DNA of 39,134 nucleotides from an uncultured Deferribacteres bacterium (GTDB taxonomy: Bacteria > Zhuqueibacterota > Zhuqueibacteria > Zhuqueibacterales > Geothermadaptataceae), in NCBI GenBank assembly GCA_964014485.1, contig CAXHAT010000062.1, positions 1-39,134 of the forward strand, in the 5' to 3' direction. The notes beneath the pieces are model-generated. The model made no database searches, was not told the origin of the DNA, and worked only from the letters and a program-made list of their open reading frames with translations. This document shows positions 1-35,149 of this stretch, piece after piece; the stretch's first letter is position 1, and the number at the start of each line of letters is the position of its first letter. The position numbers and the translations under genes were made by a program.

Positions 1-109
1 CCCCATCTGTTCATTCAGCCGTCATCATTTATGACTCGCTCACGATCCCCGCAACGAAGATTTGGAGGTGGGCCACCTCGCAATCCCCATCTGTTCATTC
101 AGCTGTCAG
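1..109 (-). CRISPR. Start of CRISPR array A, running off the left window edge; repeat about CTGACAGCTGAATGAACAGATGGGGATTGCGAG (33 nt)
   Basis: 1-24 repeats 85-108 with one mismatch. The full copy at 77-109 ends in GGGGATTGCGAG, as does array B. The 52-nt intervening segment holds a degenerate handle (39-52). Only about 1.7 repeats are visible. Confidence 0.7.
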
Positions 110-371
110 GGCGGGGATCGTAAACCTTTTCCCCACAACGACTTACGACCAGGTTTTCGAGCGGTCGGCCTGTCTTACTTACGGAACGCTCTTTTTTCAC
201 TCGCAATCCCGTCACACCCAGAACTTCATCGCGACCGCTCGCAATCCCCACGTATCGGTAACAGCCGTTTTTTCGGCAAACGGGTTGTTCTTCGGCGCTC
301 CACAGCGCCAACGCCCGCTTGCGACTTAGTTTTACCGGCTCCCCGCATACTTTGCAATCTATGTACGGCAT
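99..371 (-). CDS. Small putative Zn-binding protein (CxxC...CxxxxC); C-terminal half overlaps the CRISPR leader
   Basis: AGGAG RBS before ATG at 371; MPYIDCKVCG...PVCRKNGC. Confidence 0.4.
   Translation of the reverse strand: MPYIDCKVCGEPVKLSRKRALALWSAEEQPVCRKNGCYRYVGIASGRDEVLGVTGLRVKKERSVSKTGRPLENLVVSRCGEKVYDPRPDS
110..245 (-). promoter_or_regulatory. CRISPR leader-like sequence for array A
   Basis: Inverted repeat CGACCGCTCG (232-241) / CGAGCGGTCG (158-167), then an IHF-site-like CGTAAGTCGTTGTGGGGAAAAGGTTTACG (minus strand) next to the first repeat. This resembles type I-C/I-G-style leaders. Confidence 0.6.
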
Positions 372-436: not shown

Positions 437-697
437 TCATTCCACGATTCCTAATGCTTTCCTAATTTCACGCTGCGCATCCTTGTAACCCATGGCGTAC
501 ATCTCCGACGCCATCAGCGACACAGCTTCTTCCGGCGTGCGGACAGTCATGTCAATCACGACCCCCGACAGTTTGTGATAAATTTCGCACGGGCTTTCAT
601 CGTTCTCATTGTCCACAAAACCGAACTGTCCGATCAAGTCTAATACCTCCGCTTTCTTTTCAAGCAATTCGTCATATTCTGTTTTTATTTTTTTCAT
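437..697 (-). CDS. Hypothetical protein (86 aa) directly downstream of the dCas12f-like gene
   Basis: Starts 2 nt after the upstream stop; typical small phage ORF. Confidence 0.7.
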   Translation of the reverse strand: MKKIKTEYDELLEKKAEVLDLIGQFGFVDNENDESPCEIYHKLSGVVIDMTVRTPEEAVSLMASEMYAMGYKDAQREIRKALGIVE

Positions 698-699
698 TT

Positions 700-1923
700 T
701 TAACCTGCAATCTTTACTTTCGGCGGCGGCTCAATGCCCCAAACCTCGCGCCACTCGGATAGTTTGATGCCCACTTTAGAAAACACGATATGGTTGCACT
801 CAAGCTTCCATTTCAGATGACTCTCAAGCCGCGTCCAATCGAACGGTGCTCCCTTCGCTGACAGCCAACACGCATCACGGACGGGTGTGGTGGGCGAACG
901 ATATATCACCTTGCCGCAGTTGTTTTTGACGCACGATCTTATCACGTCCGCCACCATCATCTTCACAAATCGATCCTCCATGTCTTGCACTGCGCGGGAG
1001 TCGGGACGCAACGCGCGGTAAAACTGCTTTTTCCCCCTCCCCTTCGCCGCCGCGCCGTCTCGGTAGCGATACCGCGTCGCTTTGCGGCGAATCTCCAAAC
1101 GGCGGAAACCCTCCGCCAAGGGCAATCCGTCGCCCATCCACCAGCGCCATCGTTTGTCTTCCGCGCCGGGAAAAAAGAACGCAAACGGTCTGCGACCGTC
1201 CGGCGACGCCGGTACAATCTCCGCCACTCGCTCCGCATCCAGATTGTGGTCCTTCGTCGGGACGGGGTAGCTAAGCTGAAAAAACCACTTGCCTTTTTTG
1301 AAAACGAAAGAACTATCGCCCGCCTTATATTCCTTGCGGACTATCTTCTTTAAAATCTCTCTCTCGCCGTGCGACATCTGCCTCACTTCGAGCCGGCACA
1401 AGCCACGCATCTCTTTGCGTCCTGCCTGCTGAGAATAGATCGGGAAGCTCAGCACCGCTGAATCTTCGCCCATCCACAAATTACGCTGCGTCGCTTTTGC
1501 ATTACTGGCCAAACCGTCGTAGTAAATGCAAAAATCCTGACACGGCGCTGGCAGAAATATCGATCGGTGCGACGGTAACGAAAACTCGTTGGAAAGTATC
1601 GCCTTCCAGCGGTACTTTTCGCCGCGATGATTCCACGGCGTCTTGCCCCGCAGCCACTTCTCCACGCCGCGCTTGCATGCGCTGACGATCTTCGAGTTGA
1701 GCCGCGGGGCGGCGTCGCGTCCAGAGTTATAGATCGGTATTCCCCACGGTTTCTCCGCGAACTTGTCCGTGTCTTCGTCTTCGTGAAAACGTTGCCAGCG
1801 ACGCGCTACGGCGTTGCGGGCCACGTTGGCCATATCCGCCGCCTCTTGCAGGTCGGCGTGCAGGCGAGCGGTCGTTGTGTTGAGCGCAGCGCCGAGTTTA
1901 ATTTGTAGCGTACCTTGCGGCAT
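700..1923 (-). CDS. cas12f: Cas12f1/TnpB-family RNA-guided protein, predicted nuclease-dead and C-terminally truncated (407 aa)
   Basis: Colinear motif matches to AsCas12f1 as recalled: RLNSKIVS~RLNSGNLS; ILSNEFSLPSHR~ILRGDMSIPSYK; KKGKWFFQLSY~KNKWYLNISY; KGRGKK~GGHGRD; NCGKVIY~GCGTIQM; LESHLKWK~LQQKIIYK. RuvC-I D position is V237 (VAEIVPA) and RuvC-II E position is R342 (VIYRSP). No CxxC Zn finger or NAD/RuvC-III motif. Confidence 0.85.
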   Translation of the reverse strand: MPQGTLQIKLGAALNTTTARLHADLQEAADMANVARNAVARRWQRFHEDEDTDKFAEKPWGIPIYNSGRDAAPRLNSKIVSACKRGVEKWLRGKTPWNHRGEKYRWKAILSNEFSLPSHRSIFLPAPCQDFCIYYDGLASNAKATQRNLWMGEDSAVLSFPIYSQQAGRKEMRGLCRLEVRQMSHGEREILKKIVRKEYKAGDSSFVFKKGKWFFQLSYPVPTKDHNLDAERVAEIVPASPDGRRPFAFFFPGAEDKRWRWWMGDGLPLAEGFRRLEIRRKATRYRYRDGAAAKGRGKKQFYRALRPDSRAVQDMEDRFVKMMVADVIRSCVKNNCGKVIYRSPTTPVRDACWLSAKGAPFDWTRLESHLKWKLECNHIVFSKVGIKLSEWREVWGIEPPPKVKIAG

Positions 1924-1978
1924 ATTATCCCCCCCCGTGTTAAAGCAATGTTGCGGTCTTCTCGCCCTCGCATCCCCG

Positions 1979-5219: not shown

Positions 5220-6039
5220 TCAAGGGAATTCTCGCACTTGTATTTCACGCGGGAACTCGTTTATGTCGCCGCCTTTTTTGTCTTTAATTTTTCCACCAAC
5301 AACATTTGCGCCCAACTGCTTCACGAACACCGGCACTTTCGCCGATCGGCATTCTTCGACAATCGAGTGCGCCCACCGCACATCAAACGGGCGGGCGTTT
5401 CGGCCGCTCTCTCCACCGACAATTACCCAATCCACGGGCGGCGGGTCAGAAAAGTTAAGCGTAATTGGGCTAACCTGCGGTTCGATCGAGAGGAAAAGTT
5501 TTCTTACGAAAGGACGCAGTGCAGCAAGCCGAGGAAGCCACTCGTTAAATGTGTCTTGGTCTGAAACCGACGACCCGAGCCAAACGTTAGGGCGTCGGTT
5601 TACGCCATAACGTTCTTTTCGTATTTTTGTAACAGTCTGATGCGCTGTTGCATCTATTTTCGGCATTGGCCAAAACCGCCGCACGTTTTCCGGGCGCTTC
5701 GTTAATATCAGCCAGGCCAGCATGTAGCAATCGTCGATCAGATCAAACAGGTCTTTCCGCCACGGGATTAGCTCGTCGCGATCCTCGAAAATGTCGGCCA
5801 GCGATGCGCAAAATACGCGACGAATCTCGTTGCTTTCCCACGCCTCTTGGTTCCACTTGTGCGGCTCGCCCCACGTCTTCGTGCGGCGTCGCGTACCGTT
5901 ATCGCCCCACTCGACTGAATGGAACCGCTTGTCCATCAGTTCTTCGGCATAACAATTTTTGCAGCCCGTATGCACCTTAGTGCAACCGATCCACGGATTG
6001 AAACGTATGGTCAGTCCATTCGATTTTACTATTTCTCAT
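5220..6039 (-). pseudogene. Gp37/Gp68-family (DUF5131) radical-SAM-like protein with a 1-nt frameshift near codon 13
   Basis: MRNSKIEWTDHTF lies in one frame and NPWIGCTKVHTGCKNCYAE in another, due to an extra T at ~6001-6003. Also has VFCASLAD, LTKRP, SIEP and VGGESG motifs. Confidence 0.85.
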
Positions 6040-6269
6040 GAACTGACCCCTCCTTTCTCTTGCTGTTCGTTCGGCAGGGGTACGCCCCACCGCGCGGCGA
6101 ATTCGTCCAGCGCTTGCTCCGGTATGCGGCGGTGACTGCTCATCGGCAGTCGGCGACATTGCAAGCCATTCTTTCCGCCACTGTGCTCGTAAGCGTCGCA
6201 CCACTTGTGGATGGCCGACACCGATACTCCAAGCCGCTCTGCGGCCTGCATAGAGGTTAATTCTTTCAT
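6036..6269 (-). CDS. MerR/excisionase-like helix-turn-helix protein
   Basis: LTSMQAAERLGVSVSAIHKWC...HRRIP; GGAGG RBS. Confidence 0.8.
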   Translation of the reverse strand: MKELTSMQAAERLGVSVSAIHKWCDAYEHSGGKNGLQCRRLPMSSHRRIPEQALDEFAARWGVPLPNEQQEKGGVSS

Positions 6270-7914: not shown

Positions 7915-8009
7915 TTTCAAATCTCCAAAAAGTAAAGTGTAAGCCCCTGAAACGAAACAGAGCGGCGAGCCGGAGTCGAACCGGCGTGGACCAATCGCCG
8001 CTGCGCCGC

Positions 8010-8138
8010 CTACAGCAATGAAATTGCCAGGGCGGCGAACGCCACGCAGCTGCCGCATCCCTTCCAATCCCGGTCGCGGGCAGCGGACACGAAGCCTACG
8101 GAAGCGCTAACAAGCAAAAAAATGGCCAAAGTAAACAT
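8010..8138 (-). CDS. Small hydrophobic protein (42 aa), not in the ORF track
   Basis: TTTGGAGGATTG RBS; MFTLAIFLLVSASVGFVSAARDRDWKGCGSCVAFAALAISLL. Confidence 0.65.
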   Translation of the reverse strand: MFTLAIFLLVSASVGFVSAARDRDWKGCGSCVAFAALAISLL

Positions 8139-8232
8139 AACAATCCTCCAAAGTTAAAACCGAACAAACCTACAAACTGAAAAAGCGGCGCGCCGGAGTC
8201 GAACCGGCGTGATACCGTCGCCGCTGCGCCCG

Positions 8233-8448
8233 CTATCTTTCATAAAGCGGCACAATGTAGCCAAACTCAGGGCCCTGGCAATAGTACAGCGCGTACTCAC
8301 CGTCCTCGCTGCGATATAGTGCGGGCTCGTCATCGTGCGACGCGTGGCCGGGCTCCGCAACCAGCCGATAGTGAGTGTGGTTGGTCCAGATGTTTCGGCC
8401 GCATGGGGTGGCTGCGATGACTTTGAGCGTTTCTTTTTTTGTAATCAT
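8233..8448 (-). CDS. Hypothetical protein, first gene after sigma-54 promoter 1
   Basis: AAGGA RBS; MITKKETLK start. Confidence 0.65.
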   Translation of the reverse strand: MITKKETLKVIAATPCGRNIWTNHTHYRLVAEPGHASHDDEPALYRSEDGEYALYYCQGPEFGYIVPLYER

Positions 8449-8492
8449 AATTCGTTTCCTTGTGGTGTGGCGTGTTGACACGTGGCTATAGT

Positions 8493-8610
8493 TGCACGTC
8501 GTGTGCCAATCCGCAGAAAACCTTTGTTTTTGTTAGGTTTTCGGCGAATTGCTCTGTGGGTAGCTGTCTATAGATGGGACAGAAATCCCATTTAATTCCC
8601 ATTTTGGGAC
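8493..8610 (-). promoter_or_regulatory. Sigma-54 (-24/-12) promoter with upstream enhancer-like sites, copy 1
   Basis: TTGGCACACGACGTGCA (GG-N10-GC) at 8493-8509; upstream AT tract and GTCCCA motifs. Confidence 0.7.
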
Positions 8611-8852
8611 TCTCGCAACATAGCGCTAAGAGTTTTCTGTTCCGATTCGTGCAGTTCGGCGCGTTTGTGGTTGAGGGTTGAAGCCGTGACTCGCAGGATT
8701 TCAATTTCTTCGCGCAGCGTTCGCAGCCGGCGTAGGATGCACCAAGCCCAATCTGATTTTGTGATGCGGCTCTGAAAATGTTTCAACTGCGCGGCGGGTA
8801 CTTCGCCGTGATTCAAAAGTCGGCGAAGCTCGTTGGAAAGTGGTTGGTCCAT
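8592..8852 (-). CDS. Hypothetical protein (86 aa)
   Basis: ORF directly downstream of structured RNA copy 1. Confidence 0.55.
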   Translation of the reverse strand: MDQPLSNELRRLLNHGEVPAAQLKHFQSRITKSDWAWCILRRLRTLREEIEILRVTASTLNHKRAELHESEQKTLSAMLRESQNGN

Positions 8853-8886
8853 GATGGTTTTCTTTTTTGTTAGATGTGAAAAAAAT

Positions 8887-8991
8887 ATTCGCCGGACTCT
8901 CGCGCCCCCTCTGCTGATGCGGTTGGCGCGGGTGATCGGAATATCACGGCTACGGGTCAGCGCCTAGGACGCCACCCGTCGCCCGGCGAAT
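8887..8991 (-). ncRNA. Structured RNA motif, copy 1
   Basis: ~90-nt core nearly identical to 9455-9558, closed by a 9-bp stem ATTCGCCGG/CCGGCGAAT. Confidence 0.7.
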
Positions 8992-9006
8992 GGAAGGGGC
9001 GACTGC

Positions 9007-9294
9007 TCAGGATTGCTCAACGCGGCCAGCGACTTCGATCTCGAACAATTCGTTCTCATCTGAGAATCCTTCGAATAGGTCGCACGGCTCGAAAAAGTCT
9101 TCGTGGTATCCAGCGGTGAGCAACATGCCCAATTCTTCATCGGTCAAGTTGGAGACGGATCGAGTTCGGACGATTTGGCCCAACTGCTCGTGGGTGATAA
9201 TTTCTTCGGCCGCGGCGTGCATCAAGCAGTAGCCAAGTTGCTCATCGTTGAGGTTGGACAGTAAACCAAGGGGTTTTGCGGGAGTGTTGGTCAT
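9007..9294 (-). CDS. Small acidic hypothetical protein (95 aa)
   Basis: AAGGA RBS; internal repeat SNLNDEQLG / SNLTDEELG; acidic C-terminus. Confidence 0.7.
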   Translation of the reverse strand: MTNTPAKPLGLLSNLNDEQLGYCLMHAAAEEIITHEQLGQIVRTRSVSNLTDEELGMLLTAGYHEDFFEPCDLFEGFSDENELFEIEVAGRVEQS

Positions 9295-9333
9295 GGTCGC
9301 GGTTCCTTTTTTGGGAAGGGAAAGTAAAAGCGA

Positions 9334-9426
9334 TCAGTCAAAAATGCCAAGGATCGATTCCAGCACGATCCCCAGCAGCACGCCGATGGCCAGCGTTATC
9401 ACGGAAAGTACAAGTGCGATGCTCAT
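9334..9426 (-). CDS. Single-helix membrane peptide (30 aa), not in the ORF track
   Basis: AAGGAG RBS; MSIALVLSVITLAIGVLLGIVLESILGIFD. Confidence 0.65.
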   Translation of the reverse strand: MSIALVLSVITLAIGVLLGIVLESILGIFD

Positions 9427-9454
9427 TTTTTCTCCTTAGGAAGAGTAAAACAAA

Positions 9455-9558
9455 GCCTGCTGGACTCTCGCGCCCCCTCTGCTGATGCGGTTGGCGCGGG
9501 TGATCGTTTCTCACGGCTACGGGTCAGCGTGTACGGCGCTACCCGTCGCCCAGCAGGC
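9455..9558 (-). ncRNA. Structured RNA motif, copy 2
   Basis: Same core as copy 1, closed by a different but perfect 9-bp stem GCCTGCTGG/CCAGCAGGC. Confidence 0.7.
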
Positions 9559-9605
9559 AACAAAACGCCGCCGGGGAGTTGCACCCCGGCGAAGGCTGTG
9601 CGGCG

Positions 9606-9788
9606 TTAGGGCAAGCTTTTCAGCAACGTCTGCATGTCAACGTACGTTAGCTTTTCGGCGATTTTGGTTAGCTTGCGGGTGTGGTGGCGGGTGTCGTCCA
9701 GGTTCGGATCAGAATCCCTGTTTTTGAGAAATCGCGAAACGAACTCTTCGATCATCCAATCGCGTCCAGTCTTTTTTTCGTCTTGCAT
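9606..9788 (-). CDS. Hypothetical protein (60 aa)
   Basis: TTTGGAGGATTG RBS. Confidence 0.7.
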   Translation of the reverse strand: MQDEKKTGRDWMIEEFVSRFLKNRDSDPNLDDTRHHTRKLTKIAEKLTYVDMQTLLKSLP

Positions 9789-9904
9789 AATTCAATCCTC
9801 CAAAGTGTAAAAAGTGAAACCTCTGAACAGCCGACCGTCGCGGAATCGAACCGCGAAAAACCTCTCGGCCGGTGTGGGGTGATTGCGGCTCACCCCAAAG
9901 CCCT

Positions 9905-10339: not shown

Positions 10340-10654
10340 GGGAACCTCCAAAAAGTAAAAGTGAAACTGTTGTTAAAAGCCGCTGCGGGAATCGAACCCG
10401 CGTTACCAGGGCGGCTTGTGTGTTGTCGTCGTCGTTTTCTCATCGCCGGGCGATCGTGTCGCAAAAACCAGCGGCCCTTACCGTTGCCGGCGGGCGTGAG
10501 AGGGCAGGCGAGCGAACCGAAGGACTCTCAACTACGCGTGAGAAGCGCCGCAGAGTGCGGGATTGTAATCTTCGGCCACCAATTTAATGGTGTGCATCGG
10601 CCAGCCGTTCGAATTTTAAAAGAGCAAGTTGTCGTGTTGACGATTGACTATAGA

Positions 10655-10782
10655 TGCACGTCGTGTGCCAATTCGCAGAAAACCCGCAAACCTTTGTTTT
10701 TATTGGGTTTGCGGCGAATCGCTCTGTGGTTAGTTGTCTACAAATGGGACGAAAATCGCAAAATGGGACCCATTATGGGACA
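10655..10782 (-). promoter_or_regulatory. Sigma-54 promoter with upstream enhancer-like sites, copy 2
   Basis: TTGGCACACGACGTGCA at 10655-10671; region ~10634-10760 is a diverged duplicate of ~8473-8590; repeated GTCCCA motifs. Confidence 0.7.
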
Positions 10783-18600: not shown

Positions 18601-18771
18601 CTATTTGGTTTTTTCTTTGCTTGATTCTTCTTCCTTACGCATGTCCAGGTCAACATATCGGCAAGATCCTTTTTCAACGCCAAATCTCTCTAGCCTTTTC
18701 GGGCGCTGCTCAATATGTTCTTCGATTTCTTTTTTGAATTTATTAACATGCTCTGATTTTTCGTTATTCAT
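18601..18771 (-). CDS. Small charged protein downstream of the second ART (possible immunity or partner protein)
   Basis: Start overlaps the ART stop. Confidence 0.5.
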   Translation of the reverse strand: MNNEKSEHVNKFKKEIEEHIEQRPKRLERFGVEKGSCRYVDLDMRKEEESSKEKTK

Positions 18772-19768
18772 TTGTTTCAATTTCATCAAGTTGATATACT
18801 ACCATGTTTTTACCAAGCGTCTTACGAGTTTTTTTCCCAACTACACGGTAATGCGTTCCATGCCTCTGCATAAGCTCCGTCTCCGGCTTGAATTGGGAAT
18901 ATGGCGCAACATAATGACCTGTTTTCGCACGGACTTCAAACATTGTTCCCTTACCCCATCCCGCATAAGAAATTGCCACATGTGGAGTTGTTGTTGTTGA
19001 GCGCATTCCGTCAAATGTCACCGCACCGTCATTTTTCAACGCTTTTTCAACATTTTCTATAATTGATGGGTCAGTTGTTTCTCGCAAACCAAAGTATACC
19101 GTTTCCGGCTCTGGAAGCTTCTGGGAGGCAAGTTTTTGGAGTTCGTCAAGTTTCCATTTATTGTGCTCGTCTACGCAATCAAGTGTTTCAGGGCATTCTC
19201 TTAATCTCCGATTGAGACGAGAATAGCTTGGAGAAGTATAGAACTTTATGGCTTGTAATTCTTTTTCGTTCAGCGGTCCCTGAGTTTTCTGCCATTTCGA
19301 CAAAGAAAAATACTTAAAAACTGAAGAGACTAACGAACGAAAGGATTTGGGGAATTCTCGCGCCGACTCCTCTTGGGATTTTGAAAACGCGCCCTGCTTG
19401 TTTTTCTTCAAAGATAAAATTTTGTCAACCGTTCTATTTTCTTTTCCTTTCGCCTTTTTGTCCTCATCACCTCCTGACAACTTTGCTTTTTCTTTCGGGG
19501 TGGCGCCATCCATCACTTCTTTGGGAATAAACTCACCGCCCTTGAAATTTTTTCCACCAATACTTACGCCACCCTTAGGGGCATGCACCGCTCCCATACG
19601 TCTTACTCGCAGCGCCAACAGTGTAATTGAAATTTTGCGCCCAGGACTCGATGACACATCAATGCATGCAGGCTGGATGACGTGCAGACGTTGGAAACAT
19701 GCCGCCGATAGCCGCGAAATATGCAATTTTTTTGCATCTCTCATCGACAACCTTTTTATTTTTTTCAT
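18764..19768 (-). CDS. Second ADP-ribosyltransferase-fold protein (paralog), with the conserved Arg position replaced by Phe
   Basis: YTSPSYSRLNRRLRECPETLDC, TVYFGL, RSTT, PETELMQ; N-terminus homologous to 15542-17569. Confidence 0.8.
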   Translation of the reverse strand: MKKIKRLSMRDAKKLHISRLSAACFQRLHVIQPACIDVSSSPGRKISITLLALRVRRMGAVHAPKGGVSIGGKNFKGGEFIPKEVMDGATPKEKAKLSGGDEDKKAKGKENRTVDKILSLKKNKQGAFSKSQEESAREFPKSFRSLVSSVFKYFSLSKWQKTQGPLNEKELQAIKFYTSPSYSRLNRRLRECPETLDCVDEHNKWKLDELQKLASQKLPEPETVYFGLRETTDPSIIENVEKALKNDGAVTFDGMRSTTTTPHVAISYAGWGKGTMFEVRAKTGHYVAPYSQFKPETELMQRHGTHYRVVGKKTRKTLGKNMVVYQLDEIETNE

Positions 19769-20019
19769 TGTATTATCTCCGCCCGCACTCGCGATCCGCT
19801 GTAATGCGCCGCCGCTAATTCCAAAAACTTATCCCCGTCTGACGGTATAATTAACTCTTCCATCGTCGCGTCGGCCGGAAACGCGTCCGAAAGGATCGTC
19901 TTGGCGAGCGCATTATTAGGATCACCGCCTGTAACTTTTGCTTCGCCGTCCACAACTCCCAAGGTAAAAATCTTGCGAGGTTTATGATCAAAATTATACG
20001 AGTAAAAGTCGACTTTCAT
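19765..20019 (-). CDS. Hypothetical protein (84 aa) downstream of the kinase fusion
   Basis: Stop overlaps the ART2 start. Confidence 0.65.
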   Translation of the reverse strand: MKVDFYSYNFDHKPRKIFTLGVVDGEAKVTGGDPNNALAKTILSDAFPADATMEELIIPSDGDKFLELAAAHYSGSRVRAEIIQ

Positions 20020-34652: not shown

Positions 34653-34680
34653 AAAAAAAACGCCCCGTGAAAGGGGCGTT
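34653..34680 (-). terminator. Rho-independent terminator closing array B
   Basis: AACGCCCC-TTTCAC-GGGGCGTT followed by a T-run on the minus strand. Confidence 0.85.
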
Positions 34681-34708: not shown

Positions 34709-35149
34709 CTCGCAATCCCCACGTGCGCGCGAATCGAAGCGCACCGCCAACACTCTCGCCAACACTCTCGCAATCCCCACGTGCACGCGAAGTGCACCTC
34801 CCTTGACATTATTTCGCTACGCGGACGCCTGGTCTCGCAATCCCCACGTGCGCGCGAAGCGCACCGTGCTCTCCGGTCGGCAATCAATATTGCCGGTGAT
34901 ACTCGCAATCCCCGCGTGCGCGCGAATCGCACCTTTTTGCTTCTTTTATCTCGCAATCCCCGCGTACGCGCGAAGCGCACCCTGGCTGAGCATGGGCGAC
35001 TACAAGAGGCTGTGGCGCTCGCAATCCCCGCGTGCGCGCGAAGCACGCCATTTATTTATGACCGTAATCTCGCAATCCCCACGTGCGCGCGAAACGCACC
35101 TTGAACAAACCTATCCAAAAGCATCGAAACCCGCACTCGCAATCCCCAC
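34709..35149 (-). CRISPR. CRISPR array B: 7 full repeats plus one 3'-half repeat; consensus GGTGCGCTTCGCGCGCACGTGGGGATTGCGAG (32 nt)
   Basis: Repeat starts (+) at 34709, 34767, 34834, 34902, 34950, 35018, 35069 and 35136. Spacers are 21, 35, 36, 16, 36, 19 and 35 nt. Repeats carry a GTGCGC/GCGCAC hairpin. Confidence 0.93.

Follow-up and report, generated by a model that had tools for sequence, protein, structure and literature searches.

To our knowledge, nearly all known cases of natural dead-nuclease RNA-guided regulators (TldR, dCas12f-sigmaE, Cas12m), which are still a young field, are chromosomal or plasmid-borne. Here, we analyzed a gene encoding a 407-aa protein (the effector) on contig CAXHAT010000062.1 (C62) from the assembly of an uncultured Deferribacteres bacterium; this entire contig of 39,134 nt was examined and is referred to as the window. 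The gene probably represents a phage-borne, array-associated, nuclease-dead derivative of Cas12f, which would act as an RNA-guided, non-cutting DNA binder in gene control and as part of a three-gene module together with a protein designated X and a short zinc-ribbon open reading frame (ORF).

Hoffmann et al. (Nature 2026, PMC13472631) have characterized the sigma-E-associated dCas12f and pointed to a distinct cluster of array-associated dCas12f proteins with a possible repressor role, exemplified by a metagenome-assembled genome of Chitinophagaceae. As described there, members of this cluster have in common with the effector a Cas12f-like fold, a C-terminal truncation removing part of the RuvC site, a position by CRISPR arrays and a proposed function in repression. 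The published example is chromosomal with a guide at an RND efflux promoter, whereas the window system is phage-borne, and the cited sections of the article describe no phage carriage, accessory genes or self-targeting for the cluster, which is compared here by description, not by sequence. The sigma-E-associated protein (9n9c) is likewise a natural nuclease-dead, truncated Cas12f (Foldseek E-value 3.9e-14) and binds DNA under RNA guidance, as is presumed for the effector. However, it is encoded in an operon with rpoE, an ECF sigma factor with a C-terminal extension, mostly without arrays, and acts as an activator, whereas the window has flanking arrays and no sigma gene.

The best whole-length matches of the effector in both sequence and fold were the Cas12f1 nucleases of type V-F, namely AsCas12f (7wju, 8j12), OsCas12f (9nzq) and Un1Cas12f (7c7l). 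These enzymes share with the family their miniature size, repeats of 36-37 nt and an adjacent CRISPR array. In contrast to them, the effector lacks all three catalytic elements and the zinc finger, adaptation genes are missing, and the trans-activating CRISPR RNA (tracrRNA) is a candidate only. The cas1, cas2 and cas4 genes are found in many, although not all, type V-F loci.

TldR proteins (Wiegand et al. 2024, PMC13622181), which include a prophage-encoded fliC-associated clade, repress by occlusion of RNA polymerase. Like the effector, they are nuclease-dead proteins of the RuvC family, RNA-guided (as the effector would be) and in some cases phage-borne, but their direct ancestor is TnpB and they work with one omega-type guide RNA, fused to the 3' end of the gene, and no arrays, whereas the present family is Cas12f-like and many-spacer arrays flank its gene. 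TnpB structures also scored far lower against the effector (8iaz, E-value 4e-8). Cas12m (type V-M) and type IV systems, as outlined in a review of CRISPR in mobile elements (PMC11656645), share mobile-element carriage, the frequent lack of an adaptation module and, as would hold for the effector, silencing by binding without cleavage, but they are aimed at rival plasmids and have effectors of another lineage and size (Cas12m2, E-value about 1e-5, template modeling (TM) score about 0.3). The part of this review cited here covers Cas12m, type IV and phage dead Cas9 and mentions no phage dCas12f. Cas12k of CRISPR-associated transposons lies in a tnsB/tnsC/tniQ neighborhood, none of which was found in the window, and a preprint on Cas12r of a Thermus virus reports phage-encoded type V interference that is active against both plasmids and phages. 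Our literature search, with figures and supplements outside its scope, retrieved no description of a phage-borne, array-associated dCas12f with such accessory genes. The proteins described below form a large phage-carried family, unnamed in the libraries searched, with its own arrays and two conserved partner genes, and an effector of ~400 aa that is predicted to be naturally non-cutting has practical appeal where a highly compact platform for binding DNA is wanted.

Fold of the effector and loss of the nuclease elements

The effector matched no entry of Pfam or PHROGs. A phmmer search of the PDB sequences returned nine chains at E ≤ 10, eight of them Cas12f or OrfB/TnpB-type proteins (best match 9nzq_A, E-value 9.9e-5), and a profile built from three sequences recovered AsCas12f (7wju_A, 6.2e-13), OsCas12f (1e-11) and 9n9c (2.1e-7). 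An AlphaFold model computed with three sequences was too poor for use (predicted local distance difference test, pLDDT, 52.9); with 120 relatives, the mean pLDDT was 94.9 and the predicted TM score 0.87. The latter model matched AsCas12f (8j1j_A, Foldseek E-value 1.1e-19, TM 0.61, ~408 columns), and Cas12f or dCas12f chains occupied the top 16 listed ranks throughout, with TnpB, Cas12k (2e-6) and Cas12m2 at lower ranks. Based on the Foldseek and profile comparisons, the TnpB/Cas12f fold (WED, REC and RuvC core) is present over the whole length of the effector.

In the profile alignment with 8j12, V237 (in 'EIVPAS') occupies the column of the Asp in GIDLG, and R342 (in 'IYRSPT') that of the Glu in QMEDLT. 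The residue following R342 is a Ser in the window protein and a Glu in 112 of 140 relatives; an offset of one at RuvC-II is possible for the family, not for the window protein. The last strand of the model comprises residues 380-386 and the chain ends at residue 407. The profile alignment of OsCas12f stops at its residue 364 of 433, and its last ~70 residues, which contain the zinc finger and RuvC-III, have no counterpart in the effector. An intact RuvC D-E-D triad was not present according to the profile alignment, the tail scan and the model. The effector has a full-length Cas12f fold from which the zinc finger and all three catalytic elements have been lost. The initial annotation, made from the sequence alone, had proposed a phage-encoded, nuclease-dead, C-terminally truncated Cas12f relative ending ~20 aa past its last strand, with no zinc finger or RuvC-III; the phage genes of the contig, the Foldseek match to AsCas12f, the residues at RuvC-I and RuvC-II and the position of the chain end all agree with this proposal.

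A word-indexed search identified two relatives only. An exhaustive HMMER search of cluster representatives produced 605 matches at E ≤ 1e-3, of which 306 remained at a cutoff of 1e-10 and 148 at one of 1e-30, and the best 150 of the 605 were reduced to a 140-member alignment by dropping ten sequences shorter than 340 aa. The RuvC-I column of this alignment contains Thr (22 sequences), Glu (17), Val (15), Arg (12), Trp (11) and other residues, with Asp in only two of the 140. Arg occupies the RuvC-II column in 80 sequences, and the Glu in the next column gives the motif 'YREP' ('YRSP' in the window). A CxxC motif downstream of FDWTR was found neither in the 140 full-length relatives nor in the window protein, and the median tail is 43.5 residues. 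In an alignment of 120 sequences, none of the acidic residues is invariant or close to it, which makes an alternative catalytic triad unlikely. Relatives with 21-46% identity to the window protein have retained the truncation, and the alignments indicate that the missing nuclease parts are a family trait rather than a local truncation. Some longer members (e.g., P0032, P0044, P0113, P0051, P0122, P0106, P0107, P0030 and P0049) carry a conserved C-terminal peptide, G.G..GH..APLA.G, past the common end, which could be a docking motif for a partner.

Of 167 genomes from this phylum examined by profile search, one carried the gene, namely the window's own assembly. Pattern-seeded searches of IMG/VR with three sub-alignments revealed relatives on 12 viral contigs of 9-83 kb, and one more locus was found on a metagenome contig; a search of viral and genome collections with the 3-sequence alignment yielded no loci. 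Because a single phylum genome and 12 viral contigs carry it or its relatives, the effector gene is mobile. Including the window, DNA was available for 14 loci (designated with L numbers), about 11 of which are distinct, as coordinates and scores are identical for L009 and L010 and for L015, L016 and L017.

Guide arrays, candidate scaffold RNA and conserved neighbors

The motif CTCGCAATCCCC occurs 19 times in the window at up to two mismatches, compared with 4.6 ± 2.0 copies expected, and none of 100 shuffled sequences reached 19, which excludes chance as the source of this count. Eight of the copies lie at 34709-35147 and five at 39-432. Outside C62 the motif is at chance level (30 copies against about 37 expected), and both repeat types of the window were absent from all other contigs of the assembly. 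The two guide arrays proposed in the initial annotation (Table 1) could thus be confirmed. Both have the repeat end ...TTGCGAG, as in the family, and spacers of 16-36 nt. The array at the contig start also contains longer type-1 repeats at 77-105 and 1-24, the latter cut by the contig end, whereas the 33-nt repeat of the second array bears the hairpin GTGCGC/GCGCAC. The terminator-like hairpin closing the second array fixes its direction of transcription, which is that of the gene's strand. A repeat-end-like sequence between X and the effector (Table 1) is probably a remnant of the upstream array present there in five relatives.

Regular arrays adjoin the gene in 11 of the 14 loci, as scored by a crude detector of exact k-mers that misses the irregular arrays of the window. 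They are positioned upstream, downstream or on both sides of the gene and have from 4 to more than 23 repeats, with 15-23 unique spacers in the long arrays. The repeats are homologous across loci, 36-37 nt long, and start with GTTGCAG or GGTGCAG and end with ...TGCGAG, ...TGTGAG, ...TGCAAG or ...TGAGAG. Near-identical contigs from different metagenomes have arrays that are identical spacer for spacer, which suggests that the guides are fixed rather than rapidly acquired.

The irregularity of the window arrays, with their mixed repeat types and variable spacers, the single repeat-end remnant upstream of the gene and the Ser in place of the family's conserved Glu343 would be expected if gene and arrays were inert remnants of a once-active phage Cas12f system. 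Such decay is extremely improbable: the ORF is intact and modeled with very high confidence, the divergent relatives keep the truncation, 13 of 14 loci preserve the synteny of the module, and an identical protein is encoded on three contigs. The dead effector or the phage's repeat-bearing RNAs might alternatively serve in counter-defense against a host type V-F system, by soaking up its guides or tracrRNA or by poisoning its complexes, as has been proposed for RNA anti-CRISPRs and the phage-encoded dead Cas9. Inactivated phage Cas9 and solitary repeat units have been discussed as anti-CRISPR devices (in the cited part of PMC11656645), and the phage of locus L004 scatters repeat copies across its genome. 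We consider a decoy very unlikely, however, since the 97%-complete assembly has no other relative of the effector, its other contigs have neither repeat type and its own arrays an unrelated repeat, and long arrays of unique spacers would be unneeded.

In addition to the repeats, the loci contain a block conserved at the nucleotide level between the zinc-ribbon core and the first downstream repeat. This pre-array element, conserved in sequence and position, is a candidate scaffold RNA or tracrRNA. The sequence CTCGCAA (CTCGAAA in the window) was found 51-56 nt before the first repeat in all seven loci examined; these positions were read off the printed sequences, and the script's own best match named five of the seven. 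CTCGCAA is fully complementary to the most frequent repeat end, and the two are paired in the RNAalifold prediction. Opposite divergent repeat ends, it is paired through a G.U wobble in L009 and has one mismatch each in L005 and L002. The copy in the window has one mismatch as well. A scan for anti-repeats by duplex energy gave a best sense-strand value of ~-35 kcal/mol, which is no better than inside coding sequence.

In 13 of 14 loci, the gene for protein X (~175 aa) precedes that of the effector in the same orientation. A comparison of X with the PDB returned generic coiled coils only. The zinc-ribbon ORF was detected in 12 of 14 loci, in 11 by hidden Markov model (HMM) and in the twelfth (L008) by eye. 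In ten of the 11 HMM loci it directly follows or overlaps the effector stop; in L013 it is placed upstream instead, with X on one side and the array on the other. Its cysteines C6, C9, C32 and C37 are invariant within the core DCxxCGEPVxLS...P.CRKNGC. Between L004 and L005, the differences in this core are distributed 7/5/14 over the codon positions, and of 28 codons 11 are changed synonymously and 6 non-synonymously, a pattern that speaks for a real protein. In the window, the tail of the ORF shares sequence with the conserved pre-array element and with several repeat ends, and may be non-coding. The zinc-ribbon ORF has no Pfam family and no relative in the PDB. In a protein atlas, X and the zinc ribbon reached scores of only 0.81-0.84, a level often attained by shuffled proteins, and a complex prediction for dCas12f with the zinc-ribbon core gave a score of 0.00, which has no weight for or against binding. 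We also considered the ORF as a split-off zinc finger of Cas12f; its profile retrieved no Cas12f or TnpB chain, the Pfam search did not return OrfB_Zn_ribbon, and this origin is speculation only.

The genes around the module vary by locus (RecT, Erf, SNF2 or DEAD helicases), and hence X, dCas12f and the zinc-ribbon ORF behave as a unit. From this synteny, X and the zinc-ribbon protein are presumed to be functionally linked to the effector, and the 'stand-alone' system of the initial annotation has to be abandoned. The acidic ORF between the effector and the zinc-ribbon ORF in the window (Table 1) is absent from that position in the other loci.

Domain scans of roughly 45 main ORFs of the window revealed no cas1, cas2 or cas4, no tnpA, transposase, integrase or Tn7 (tnsB/tnsC/tniQ) domains and no sigma-70-family domain or rpoE, as the initial annotation had predicted for adaptation, transposition and sigma genes. 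The lack of transposase, TnsC/TniQ and integrase domains also bears on a role resembling that of Cas12k, in which the effector would be the targeting subunit of a recombinase, Mu-type transposase or nuclease encoded elsewhere in the phage. Its Mu-like head genes (Mu F, Mu portal and Mu gp36 domains) and the incompleteness of the contig, the identical protein being found on one of 52 kb, are compatible with such a partner. Nevertheless, the conserved neighbors are X and the zinc ribbon, not enzymes, and the arrays are long compared to the short Cas12k arrays described in the cited part of PMC10691335, making this role highly improbable.

Targets and proposed mode of action

Comparison of the 13 candidate guides of the window with the contig and the 8.4-Mb assembly produced no credible match (best 20 nt with one mismatch, E-value 0.04). 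A comparison of all spacers with all available family loci revealed no target, nor did one of the arrays of the window, L004, L015 and L009 with cultured-phage records, and an exact 30-nt pattern from one window spacer had no match in IMG/VR. When six relatives were searched against their own records, L004, L009, L011 (an 83-kb record, 100% complete) and L013 showed no spacer match, whereas one of the 15 spacers of L015 matched its own phage genome (6565-6602 identical to L018 1551-1588 at 38 of 38 positions, record G168). This record is 37.7 kb long and 95% complete, and its effector is 41% identical to that of the window, with Thr at RuvC-I. The protospacer is located at the 3' end of a 193-aa gene in the late head-gene cluster, beside a portal-like gene, with the ATG of the next gene following after about 70-105 nt, and the guide would pair with the coding strand. 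Its 5' flank is GAG, which equals the repeat end. A perfect self-match would be lethal for, or incompatible with, a cutting effector, and thus fits a regulatory binder. The initial annotation had suggested binding at multiple host or competitor loci, but no protospacer was found for any window guide in the sequences compared. The only target found for any relative is in its own late genes, which favors self-regulation no less than silencing of a host or competitor. As this is one case in six, self-regulation is not shown to be the family's main job. In L008, the sixth relative searched, the only match was a 23-nt perfect direct repeat CCGCCGAAGCTGGTGGCACGAGC (5658-5680 and 6025-6047), which precedes two successive genes just downstream of the array.

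In the preferred reading, a non-cutting guided binder, we infer as follows how the effector would acquire RNA, bind DNA and affect transcription, and what X and the zinc-ribbon protein would contribute. The effector would load short RNAs from the flanking arrays, consisting of the repeat end ...TTGCGAG followed by a guide, with the scaffold RNA probably supplied by the conserved element of about 150 nt before the downstream array. The loaded effector would find complementary double-stranded DNA, open an R-loop and stay bound without cutting, and the bound complex would block or modulate transcription. It would work in the conserved module of X, dCas12f and the zinc-ribbon protein. The guides would be fixed, at least some of them aimed at the phage's own genome for late-gene control, and others may target competing elements or the host.

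Besides its arrays, the phage of L004 (IMG/VR, 61 kb) has more than 20 further sites with repeat copies. Within 17 kb, the 15-nt repeat end GAAGTGTGTTGCGAG is present in 14 solitary copies (Table 1), six of which have a strict -10-like box 5-13 nt upstream, compared with 1.4% of random positions (binomial P about 2e-8) and with none of the 41 array repeats of L004. Downstream of several of the solitary copies, a ribosome-binding site and start codon are present within 20-30 nt. From these features, L004 transcripts seem to begin with a CRISPR RNA (crRNA) handle. Solitary copies were found in none of five other relatives, and none in the window survived scrutiny, so this is a trait of L004's phage and not of the family. 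One such candidate in the window, a handle-like motif (19788-19799) ahead of a gene that starts at 19768, was rejected as it lies inside a small upstream ORF and two-mismatch matches are at chance level.

These observations raise the testable hypothesis that guides derived from CRISPR serve phages in timing or tuning the transcription of their own genes. In its strongest form, which is possible though doubtful, X, dCas12f and the zinc-ribbon protein would constitute a three-protein RNA-guided regulator running part of the phage's own expression with hard-wired guides, some of them array spacers against late genes (as in L015). In some phages (as in L004), a gene's own handle-led transcript could be taken up by the effector, closing a feedback loop on transcription. 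With an effector predicted to be unable to cut, the repeat end ...GAG may itself be a target-adjacent motif, and discrimination between self and non-self would have been abandoned.

The tie of the L004 handle to transcription starts would be expected of an RNA-guided activator or recruiter, whose bound complex would bring RNA polymerase or another factor through X or the zinc ribbon and switch on phage genes. Furthermore, among natural nuclease-dead Cas12f proteins of solved structure, the closest (9n9c) activates transcription, and two conserved accessory proteins accompany the effector. In contrast, no sigma-factor domain was found in the window, X matches generic coiled coils only, and the effector profile is closer to the cutting AsCas12f (E-value 6e-13) than to dCas12f-sigmaE (2e-7). 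The self-target of L015 is inside the 3' end of a gene and not at an obvious promoter-less operon start. On balance, activation appears unlikely.

Several observations weigh against the non-cutting binder proposed here. No target was found for any of the 13 candidate guides of the window, and a self-target was found in the record of one of six relatives only. The window arrays are short and irregular, and could be decaying, and its protein has a Ser where most relatives keep a Glu. CTCGCAA does not covary with the repeat ends that diverge, and only weak joint folds (-7.2 and -1.7 kcal/mol) were obtained for the pre-array element. Together with a duplex scan at background, this reduces the 'tracr-like RNA' of the initial annotation to a candidate element. 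Finally, the link of X and the zinc-ribbon ORF to the effector comes from synteny alone, in phages that may share a backbone.

Source contig and phage context

Table 1. Positions of the module, arrays and associated elements in the window, and of the solitary repeat ends in L004
Feature	Position	Strand	Description
Irregular array, cut by contig end	1..432	-	repeat ends 421-432, 238-249, 200-211, 77-88, 39-50
Zinc-ribbon ORF	102..371	-	four-cysteine zinc ribbon in first 40 residues (252-371)
Conserved pre-array element, candidate guide-RNA scaffold or tracrRNA	109..199	-	holds CTCGAAAAC at 153-161
86-aa acidic ORF, no known family	437..697	-	between effector and zinc-ribbon ORF
Nuclease-dead truncated Cas12f-like effector (predicted), 407 aa	700..1923	-	V237 at RuvC-I, R342/S343 at RuvC-II, without zinc finger, without RuvC-III
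Repeat-end-like GGGGATGCGAG	1967..1977	-	between X and effector (gap of 55 nt), effector ATG about 43 nt further on
Protein X, 172 aa	1979..2497	-	conserved N-terminal domain with DWIAQVHGG motif and C-terminal coiled coil
Intrinsic-terminator-like hairpin and T-run	34659..34680	-	closes second array
Second array	34709..35147	-	8 copies of repeat end GGGGATTGCGAG, 7 inside 33-nt hairpin-bearing repeat
L004 solitary copies	798, 3438, 4351, 5584, 11760, 12061, 13349	both strands	GAAGTGTGTTGCGAG
L004 solitary copies, continued	13907, 14881, 15024, 15278, 17042, 17103, 17167	both strands	GAAGTGTGTTGCGAG

The window is a phage or prophage fragment, in which nearly all long ORFs are on the minus strand. 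The domain scans identified a large terminase subunit, a Mu-type portal, a Mu F-like head protein, Mu gp36-like proteins, tail-completion proteins and a head-decoration protein, as well as an SNF2 helicase, a DUF5131 protein, two HTH proteins and a glycosyltransferase. The sequence of the effector is on record in identical form on three contigs, and the phage genome must be larger than the window because the longest of these has 52,338 nt. In three DNA runs from one marine-metagenome study, parts of the locus were present as short contigs identical to the window, which were uninformative on the arrays.

The assembly of 8.4 Mb comprises 465 contigs and is 97% complete. Its sole Cas1 is encoded on contig C60 (4982-5821), beside arrays with an unrelated repeat. 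The assembly's own arrays (on C60, C111, C161, C185 and C457) have a common repeat of ~37 nt ending in ...GATCTTCGGTAGGCTTCCAC, which is unrelated to the phage repeats. None of 96 spacers of the host assembly matched the phage contig above chance, leaving binning as the only link between phage and host.

Directly after the Mu F-like head protein, the window encodes a 334-aa ORF (18764-19768, minus strand) with an ADP-ribosyltransferase domain (PF03496, E-value 2e-9). This ORF resembles the virion-carried ADP-ribosyltransferases that are injected by some phages.

Rfam and tRNA scans of the window gave no matches. Two 52-nt elements at 7961-8012 and 8184-8235, 85% identical to each other, resemble on the minus strand the 3' half of a tRNA (T-arm and acceptor), and ARAGORN predicted no tRNA in the window. 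A stretch of ~1.7 kb (8068-9791) has one ORF of at least 90 aa only (9007-9294). Duplicated non-coding elements are present at 8468-8590 and 10630-10760 (85-87% identical) and at 8891-8987 and 9459-9554 (86-98% identical). These duplicates contain neither the repeat-end motif nor its complement, and may represent small RNA genes or regulatory repeats.

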